From IMG/VR virus record IMGVR_UViG_2734482779_000004, positions 1 through 27,850 of that record: 27,850 nucleotides of DNA, one strand, 5' to 3'. The notes under the pieces were generated by a model. That model ran no database searches. It was not told where the DNA came from and saw only the letters and a list, made by a program, of their open reading frames with translations. The translations under genes and the position numbers were made by a program. Shown one piece after another: positions 22,347-22,646 of this stretch (positions are counted from its first letter, which is position 1; every line of letters starts with the position of its first letter). Source of the stretch: a virus. Taxonomy: Duplodnaviria > Heunggongvirae > Uroviricota > Caudoviricetes.

Positions 22347-22646
22347 ATAAATCACTCTCTTACTGTAGGGGTAAGAGGATTTTACTATTTTTCTCGCTGT
22401 AGGGGTACACGAGAACCACCGAGCCTGATGTGGTTAAAAGACAGGCATACTAATAAACACTGCACTGTGTATTTATTCCAACGAGTGAATACACGGAGCA
22501 ATGTCGCTCGTAACTAAACAGGAGCCGACTTGTTCTGATTATTGGAAATCTTCTTTGCCCTCCAATGTGATGGCTTTTTTATATGCATACCAATAACGCT
22601 TCACTCGAGGCGTTTTCGTTATGCAATCAAATATAAGGAGTTACCC

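Follow-up and report, generated by a model that had tools for sequence, protein, structure and literature searches.

The stretch of DNA analyzed here (27,850 nucleotides, IMG/VR record IMGVR_UViG_2734482779_000004, hereafter the window) belongs to a lambdoid (pro)phage whose PL direction corresponds to the + strand, and our subject is a control region in which an 11-mer occurs twice upstream of an antisense gene, rip1. A cI-like repressor gene (20438-21139) is followed by a lambda-type N gene (21485-21859, + strand), by rip1 (21852-22346, − strand), by cIII, identified by a Pfam match and beginning with the ATG at 22647 (+), and by kil (22766-22918, +). This order is the same as in lambda and P22, where sieB fills the slot between the N homologue and ral/cIII that rip1 occupies here.

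The antisense gene encodes a 164-residue protein of the HkaP family, assigned from the open reading frame listing, phrog_1244 and a match to PDB entry 9OOX, 'phage HK446 Rip1 in complex with T6 small terminase', to which the product is 99% identical. The match was obtained with phmmer (E 1.4e-105, residues 3-164) and with Foldseek starting from an AlphaFold model (E 1e-17, 99% identity; predicted local distance difference test, pLDDT, 70). Pfam, NCBIfam and PADLOC 2.0 did not recognize the protein, and it was the fold search that gave its identity. HK446, 720R6 and ev099 carry the same segment at 98–99% identity to the window. More distant homologues include a 189-residue protein of 689R2 (53% identical to the window Rip1) and the diverged HkaP of HK620 (27%), annotated as a 'putative superinfection exclusion protein'; four Cys residues of a zinc ribbon are invariant among Rip1 homologues. 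Section 5 of PMC13434031, which cites Patel et al. 2026, describes Rip1 (ring interacting pore 1) as an abortive-infection protein of prophages: its 12-mer builds around small-terminase or portal rings to give a membrane pore. It was first described in 2026, as a single-protein pore-forming defence. Its C-terminal half touches the small-terminase rings in a 12:11 pore complex (PDB 9OOX; PMC13434031). Within rip1, a GGAGG stands 7 nt ahead of an in-frame AUG (Met23; 22278-22292, − strand, codons 19-23), an arrangement that resembles the internal Esc start of sieB. An Esc-like internal start was rejected for Rip1, as Met23 is not conserved and is replaced by Lys in most homologues.

Two copies of the 11-mer CTGTAGGGGTA, at 22363-22373 (proximal to rip1) and 22397-22407 (distal), lie 34 bp apart from start to start, as direct reading and a pattern search both showed and as the original prediction had stated. 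They are the only exact copies in the window, and a pattern search of the window found no further copy, allowing up to one mismatch, near OL or OR. The similarity stretches to 16 nt at 88% identity (TCTTACTGTAGGGGTA/TCTCGCTGTAGGGGTA), and the copies start 17 nt (proximal) and 51 nt (distal) upstream of the rip1 ATG at 22346. The inverted repeat reported beyond them is likewise present, with GTGTATT at 22467-22473 and AATACAC at 22488-22494. We also agree that the sequences are unlike the OL/OR operators or a LexA box. Both candidates were rejected: the 11-mers are direct repeats without dyad symmetry, and CTGT-N8 is followed by ACGA or GAGG, not by ACAG. ToxI-like repeats of a type III toxin-antitoxin RNA, a candidate prompted by the 34-nt period, were rejected as well, as 11–16 nt are shared per 34-nt unit and the cargo is Rip1.

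Taken singly, neither the direct repeat nor the inverted repeat is remarkable versus chance. Exact direct repeats of at least 11 nt within 60 nt arose in 26% of 200 dinucleotide-shuffled windows (mean 0.375), and 7-bp inverted repeats with 3–20-nt loops numbered 56 across the window against 35.5 ± 7.5 expected from dinucleotide shuffles. The case for the repeats rests for this reason on comparison across sequences. In 611 kb of lambdoid loci, every one of the 275 copies of the 10-mer core of the repeat belongs to a single module, where about one copy would be expected by chance.

This module spans ~110 bp upstream of the antisense gene in the N-cIII gap of lambda, P22, HK620, VT1-Sakai and many prophages, and it is present in 988 of 5426 complete E. 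coli genomes (~18%). Both repeats stand 34 bp apart in lambda, VT1-Sakai, Salmonella phage 29485, HK620, HK446 and 720R6. Unbiased figures come from protein-anchored sets: among 32 distinct IMG/VR sequences upstream of Rip1-like or SieB-like genes, 30 keep both cores at this spacing. A set of 25 distinct module variants, picked by sequence pattern, holds three versions of the proximal 10-mer, all single changes, as against 13–15 versions of the 6–8 nt flanking it and 15 of the discriminator. The pair also keeps its 34-bp spacing in Proteus, Serratia, Pantoea, a soil metagenome-assembled genome and Logan contigs, where the cargo protein is 45–63% identical. A two-repeat pattern scan of genome contigs, for which ~120 chance matches are expected in 596 Gb, returned, among the matches listed, mostly CRISPR-like or chance hits, the useful ones being lambda-type copies and one variant, L219.

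These figures bear on whether the repeats have a function at all. A chance duplicate, spread by recent ancestry or by recombination of mosaic modules, would be in keeping with the frequency of such repeats in shuffled sequence and with the distal half of the module, which is nearly identical in many phages, as recent exchange would leave it. Set against this are the near constancy of the proximal copy amid such variable flanks and the persistence of the pair across genera down to 45% cargo identity, and we regard a functionless duplicate as very improbable.

The same comparison speaks to what the repeats might bind. The 10-mer pair precedes two types of SieB as well as Rip1/HkaP proteins (27–100% identity); lambda SieB and P22 SieB are 25% identical, and the window protein is unrelated to P22 SieB (E 0.93). 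The original prediction had considered the repeats a possible binding site for the 164-residue product of the antisense gene, an idea to which the invariant four-Cys zinc ribbon, a fold able to bind nucleic acid, and the adjacency of repeats and gene lend some appeal. Because the cargo proteins behind the same 10-mers are unrelated, SieB proteins being membrane proteins unlike Rip1, the pair is not an operator for its own product. The product is moreover the pore-forming sensor of terminase and portal rings outlined above, not a DNA-binding protein, and we give this proposal almost no credence.

On the − strand, the module is homologous to a mapped promoter. It is 87% identical over 85 nt to positions 29652-29736 of the curated P22 record BK000583, which annotates in the homologous stretch a promoter (29690-29720) and the 'sieB RNA start site' (29727). 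When the two sequences are set in register, P22 sieB RNA begins at the A directly before CCCCTACAG; the proximal repeat thus corresponds to mRNA positions +1 to +10 (ACCCCTACAG), and the −35 slot is taken up by the distal repeat. Transferred from P22, the transcription start site of rip1 is predicted at A 22372 (−). The rip1 mRNA would then begin with a 26-nt leader (22347-22372, −; 5'-ACCCCUACAGUAAGAGAGUGAUUUAU-AUG) that contains a Shine-Dalgarno (SD)-like AAGAGAG (22355-22361) and is predicted by folding to be unstructured. The −10 hexamer TAAAAT (22379-22384, −) would occupy positions −12 to −7, where all 25 of the distinct variants read TAnnnT (TAAACT in 14, TAAAAT in 5, TAATAT in 4, and TATAAT and TAGTAT in 1 each). 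A 17-bp spacer separates it from TACCCC in the −35 slot (22402-22407, −). P22 sieB is expressed from the prophage (PMC10883804). This comparison supports the region as the promoter of the antisense gene, of the PsieB type. Of the 'dedicated operator/promoter' proposed originally, the promoter part is upheld; 'dedicated' does not hold, as the same module stands before P22-type SieB, lambda-type SieB and Rip1/HkaP.

The module is missing or decayed in Providencia and in two other lineages. At the Rip1 homologue of Providencia alcalifaciens (L260/L261), both 10-mers are lost, the pseudoknot described below is kept (S1 CCUCA/UGAGG), and an extended −10, TGTGTATAAT, is present. This loss amounts to a natural experiment, and it suggests a link between the 10-mers and promoter function. 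Distant lineages were searched for covariation between the two copies, and none was found; the copies are there either both unchanged or both lost.

One way to account for the constancy of the 10-mers is that they form a pair of DNA operators, bound at about −31 (activator) and about +5 (repressor) by a constant trans-acting factor that is host-encoded or common to these phages. It is the sequence of the 10-mer itself, not a structure, that is invariant across genera, as a constant factor would require; the poor −35 hexamer of the module is typical of activator-dependent promoters; and Providencia lost both copies together and gained an extended −10. Against such a pair, no candidate factor is known, the 10-mer occurs neither outside the module in the 611 kb of lambdoid DNA nor elsewhere in the window, and the 34-bp spacing is already demanded by promoter geometry. 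Since 34 bp corresponds to 3.2 helical turns, the two sites would not lie on one face of the helix, and autoregulation is excluded by the unrelated cargo proteins. We consider an operator pair rather unlikely. On the − strand, TACCCCT occurs at 22401-22407 and 22367-22373, its first base not being conserved in the proximal copy of other phages. It matches the NarL/NarP heptamer, TACYYMT; this match carries little information.

The + strand, which the original prediction left out, matches the P22 antisense RNA sas, in which both repeats are present (PMC13397905 Table 2). In that 2026 study, sas is a 127-nt RNA detected by small-RNA-seq only in Salmonella cells infected with P22; its length in the original work was 105 nt, according to PMC12197685. 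The P22 sas sequence begins over the sieB start codon, holds both CUGUAGGGGU blocks and ends past a hairpin region identical in the window. Window positions 22363-22446 align to nt 27-110 of the 127-nt P22A-sas, the 5' 26 nt of which are cargo-specific, as expected of a cis-antisense RNA. Complementarity of sas to the mRNA is limited to its first ~33 nt; the distal block and the remainder of sas 3' to it map upstream of the point where the mRNA begins. With ends inferred from P22, a sas-like RNA, or an equivalent segment of the PL transcript, is predicted at 22342-22446 (+). It would begin ~2 nt before the complement of the rip1 start codon and extend across the proximal (CUGUAGGGGUA) and distal repeats to the end of a pseudoknot-like element. 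Rfam searches at gathering and permissive thresholds gave no family in this region, only noise, and tRNAs elsewhere in the window.

Three structures are predicted along this segment. In the first, stem-loop 1 (SL1; 22356-22378, +), an 8-bp stem (UCUCUUAC/GUAAGAGG) presents the proximal core in its loop and is followed by a U-rich tract. SL1 is strong in the window, HK620 and 689R2 lineages, with z-scores of −2.4 to −3.5 against flank shuffles (−2.4 in the window lineage). A general rule that the proximal repeat always lies in a hairpin loop was rejected, the mean z-score being −0.8 and equal on both strands. The terminator scan flags 22356-22378 followed by AUUUUACUAU, and this, together with the significance of the stem in the three lineages, could mean that SL1 and its U-tract (22356-22390, +) are an intrinsic terminator in this lineage, with the proximal repeat as its loop, that stops PL transcripts lacking antitermination or sets an antisense RNA of ~45 nt. 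Against this, lambda, Hafnia, L243, L246 and L247 conserve the 10-mer but have no significant hairpin, or none at all; P22 sas reads extend beyond SL1 (PMC13397905); the U-rich tract is the −10 region read on the complementary strand; and the HK620 annotation puts tL1 elsewhere, within hkaP. We find a terminator at this position improbable.

The second structure, SL2 (UCUCG-C-UGUA-GGGG-UACA-CGAGA; 22392-22414, +), contains the distal repeat as its core, with GGGG as the tetraloop, and is predicted in every variant folded. Across the alignment, 96.7% of its cells are paired, and the sole changes are C>U substitutions giving U.G pairs, which are legal on the + strand only. In Pantoea the hairpin is remodelled yet retained.

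The third (22414-22446, +) has the topology of an H-type pseudoknot, or of two mutually exclusive hairpins. Its stems are S1 (AACCAC/GUGGUU, 22414-22419 with 22430-22435) and S2 (GCCUG/CAGGC, 22423-22427 with 22442-22446), and its loop L3 is A-rich (AAAAGA). MAFFT misregisters S2 as the length of L3 varies, and pairing was scored instead by a per-sequence search with shuffle controls, in which the window score was reached by 0 of 300 shuffles and the scores of the variants were seldom matched by shuffled sequence. S1 occurs in at least five fully paired versions, with compensatory pairs such as ACCCUC/GAGGGU, CCACG/CGUGG, UCACG/CGUGA, AAUCCUC/GAGGAUU and CCUCA/UGAGG, and S2 in three, including GCCGGG/CCCGGC and CCGGG/CCCGG. 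Wobble changes occur in this element in four lineages, and each keeps a legal pair on the + strand alone. The element was also noted at loci L116/L118, L219, L066, L033, L258, L260 and L263, and in P22 it falls at the 3' end of sas. Taken together, the covariation supports a conserved RNA structure on the + strand. Because two Klebsiella phages carry the pseudoknot-like element with neither the repeats nor any antisense gene, it is separable from the module. Within S1b/L3, L033, L064, L066 and L115 read TGTGGATAA, from which the window sequence TGTGGTTAA (22429-22437) differs by one mismatch. TGTGGATAA is an exact DnaA-box consensus (TTATCCACA, reverse complement), which may be coincidence.

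These structures allow the repeated 10-mer to be read at the RNA level. The first 10 nt of the rip1 mRNA (ACCCCUACAG) could pair with either copy in the antisense RNA, and the distal SL2 loop would act as a nucleation or second capture site in an IS10-like contact between a 5' end and a loop. The distal copy is identical to the proximal one in almost all lineages, and because it lies upstream of the transcription start, its match to the mRNA 5' end is not forced by cis-encoding. A duplex of the mRNA 5' end with either copy is predicted at ~−18 kcal/mol, folding leaves the distal GGGG exposed in each of the variants tried, and the rip1 leader, predicted to be unstructured, suits such pairing. 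The proximal copy changes recurrently in one way only, by G>A (L033 and L241), and the altered base can still form a G.U-compatible pair with the distal copy. Pointing the other way, no lineage has shifted both copies jointly to a new shared sequence, the inner SL2 stem hides 8 of the 10 nt of the distal copy, its position in the promoter also accounts for that copy, and in L109 it carries a disruptive change. A role in RNA pairing is in our view less likely than not, though somewhat easier to accept than an operator pair.

The explanation we favor, with a probability of about 0.72, is that the region is a portable cassette of ~110 bp that is used on both strands, a PsieB-type promoter on one and a sas-type antisense RNA on the other, with the repeats as its two fixed blocks, and that it now drives rip1. 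This reading draws on homology to a mapped promoter and start site, on promoter geometry, on conservation across genera and on the structure of the + strand. The cassette would sit before whichever exclusion or defence gene fills the antisense slot between N and ral/cIII. On the − strand, a sigma-70 promoter of the PsieB type and the short leader would allow Rip1 to be made in the prophage while PL is repressed. On the + strand, transcription in the PL direction would give a sas-type RNA complementary to the leader, the SD sequence and the start codon, which would run on through the distal repeat, displayed in SL2 with its GGGG loop, into the 3' pseudoknot-like structure. By analogy with P22 sas, this antisense RNA would be expected to lower translation of the cargo once leftward lytic transcription is on.

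Several observations weigh against this cassette reading. TACCCC matches TTGACA at 2 of 6 positions and is not compensated by an extended −10, the P22 −35 being equally poor, and a simple consensus promoter scan missed this promoter. The start site is transferred from P22. For the + strand, a promoter scan of the sequence preceding the sas 5' end detected no sigma-70-like promoter in either P22 or the window; the antisense RNA may depend on PL read-through and processing. SL1, as noted, is not conserved. Finally, the P22 switch needs an in-frame Esc start, and Met25 of SieB is invariant whereas Met23 of Rip1 is not conserved, so an Esc-type translational switch is not expected for rip1.

Comparison with known systems places the cassette more closely. 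The P22 sieB promoter and the sas antisense RNA were reportedly described by Ranade and Poteete in 1993. Beyond the homology of the DNA, in which the distal repeat, SL2 and the pseudoknot are nearly identical, the module occupies one and the same slot in the window and in P22, flanked by the N homologue and by ral/cIII; both have the pair of 10-mers 34 bp apart and a −10 at the same place, and in both, an antisense RNA, here predicted by alignment, covers start codon, leader and both repeats. In contrast to P22, the cargo is Rip1 and not SieB, the leader, SD sequence, discriminator and −10 are another sequence version, rip1 has no conserved in-frame internal start, and the system is known here from sequence alone. 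The region upstream of lambda sieB (34,358-34,481) resembles the window in both repeats, their 34-bp spacing, a TAAACT −10, and an identical SL2 and pseudoknot; it differs in that lambda SieB is unrelated to Rip1, that orf28 and ral follow the module, and that a hairpin of the kind found here at 22467-22494 lies further downstream, before ea10. HK620 (AF335538) has an antisense gene for 164 residues, hkaP, in the same slot, and the 300 bp upstream of it are 94.5% identical to the window, including both repeats. HkaP is only 27% identical to the window Rip1, and the HK620 record annotates neither an hkaP promoter nor an antisense RNA. The near identity of the window product to HK446 Rip1 concerns the cargo, not the control region. 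In IS10, the cis-antisense RNA-OUT pairs with the extreme 5' end and ribosome-binding site of the RNA-IN mRNA, which has a short leader, and pairing starts between the mRNA 5' end and a loop of the antisense RNA. The likeness is one of mode of action, and there is no homology to IS10; unlike it, the window has two complementary blocks and a 3' pseudoknot-like domain, and loop-initiated pairing is a prediction only.

Farther along the + strand, the inverted repeat at 22467-22494 forms, as RNA, a hairpin with a 9-bp stem that includes one G.U pair (GUGUAUUUA/UGAAUACAC) and a 10-nt loop. The original prediction had grouped it with the direct repeats as part of one control region; it is instead a module separate from that controlling rip1, since the lambda hairpin lies between ral and ea10 and hairpins of this type do not stand beside the repeat module in 22 of 75 loci. 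In L076 and L077, a different 8-bp hairpin, ATAGCAGA-TTTGCGAG-TCTGCTAT, occupies the same position, ahead of a conserved GAGCAATGTCGCTCG, and this suggests that a hairpin is conserved at that point of the PL transcript. Next come a tL2A-like terminator (22557-22580, +) and a tL2B-like terminator (22595-22620, +), both annotated at the homologous positions in HK620; the terminator scan finds 22595-22614 within the latter. Both belong to the PL operon and lie upstream of cIII. The tL2A-like stem is weakened here, reading GCCCUC...GAUGGC where HK620 and lambda have GAGGGC in the second arm, and this might raise read-through into cIII.

Elsewhere in the window, an exact direct repeat of ~19 nt (TGTCTCTAACTTCGAGACA), with copies 48 bp apart, lies at 18636-18703 and may represent iterons of a replication origin. 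An exact 13-nt direct repeat (CCATTTGCGCCTG), 51 bp apart, lies at 5890-5954. Two tandem tRNA genes (12750-12902, −; Rfam 61.5 and 53 bits) are arranged as downstream of Q in Stx-type lambdoid phages.

The sieB-type promoter and sas-type antisense region represent biology established in 1993, here attached to a different, recently characterized defence gene. Because the core identification dates from that time, our result is a useful annotation rather than a discovery. As far as could be found, the literature offers no explanation for an invariant 10-mer pair at −35 and +1 or for a covarying pseudoknot-like domain. One regulatory cassette is common to unrelated exclusion genes and present in ~18% of complete E. 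coli genomes, and rip1 of HK446-like phages stands behind the cassette by which P22 escapes its own SieB. How a prophage survives its own Rip1 upon induction is an obvious question, to which the cassette offers a testable route: by analogy with the role of sas and Esc in P22, it may make Rip1-encoding phages immune to their own Rip1. A broader version, which we hold to be speculative and on balance doubtful, is that the cassette is a general self-immunity switch for prophage abortive-infection genes, with expression in the lysogen and, whenever PL fires upon induction or infection by a related phage, antisense capture of the mRNA 5' end (ACCCCUACAG) by two identical exposed blocks. If so, the 10-mer pair and the 3' pseudoknot would be the core of an undescribed, widespread family of phage small RNAs, and the phage's own terminase and portal rings would be kept from triggering its own Rip1 pore.

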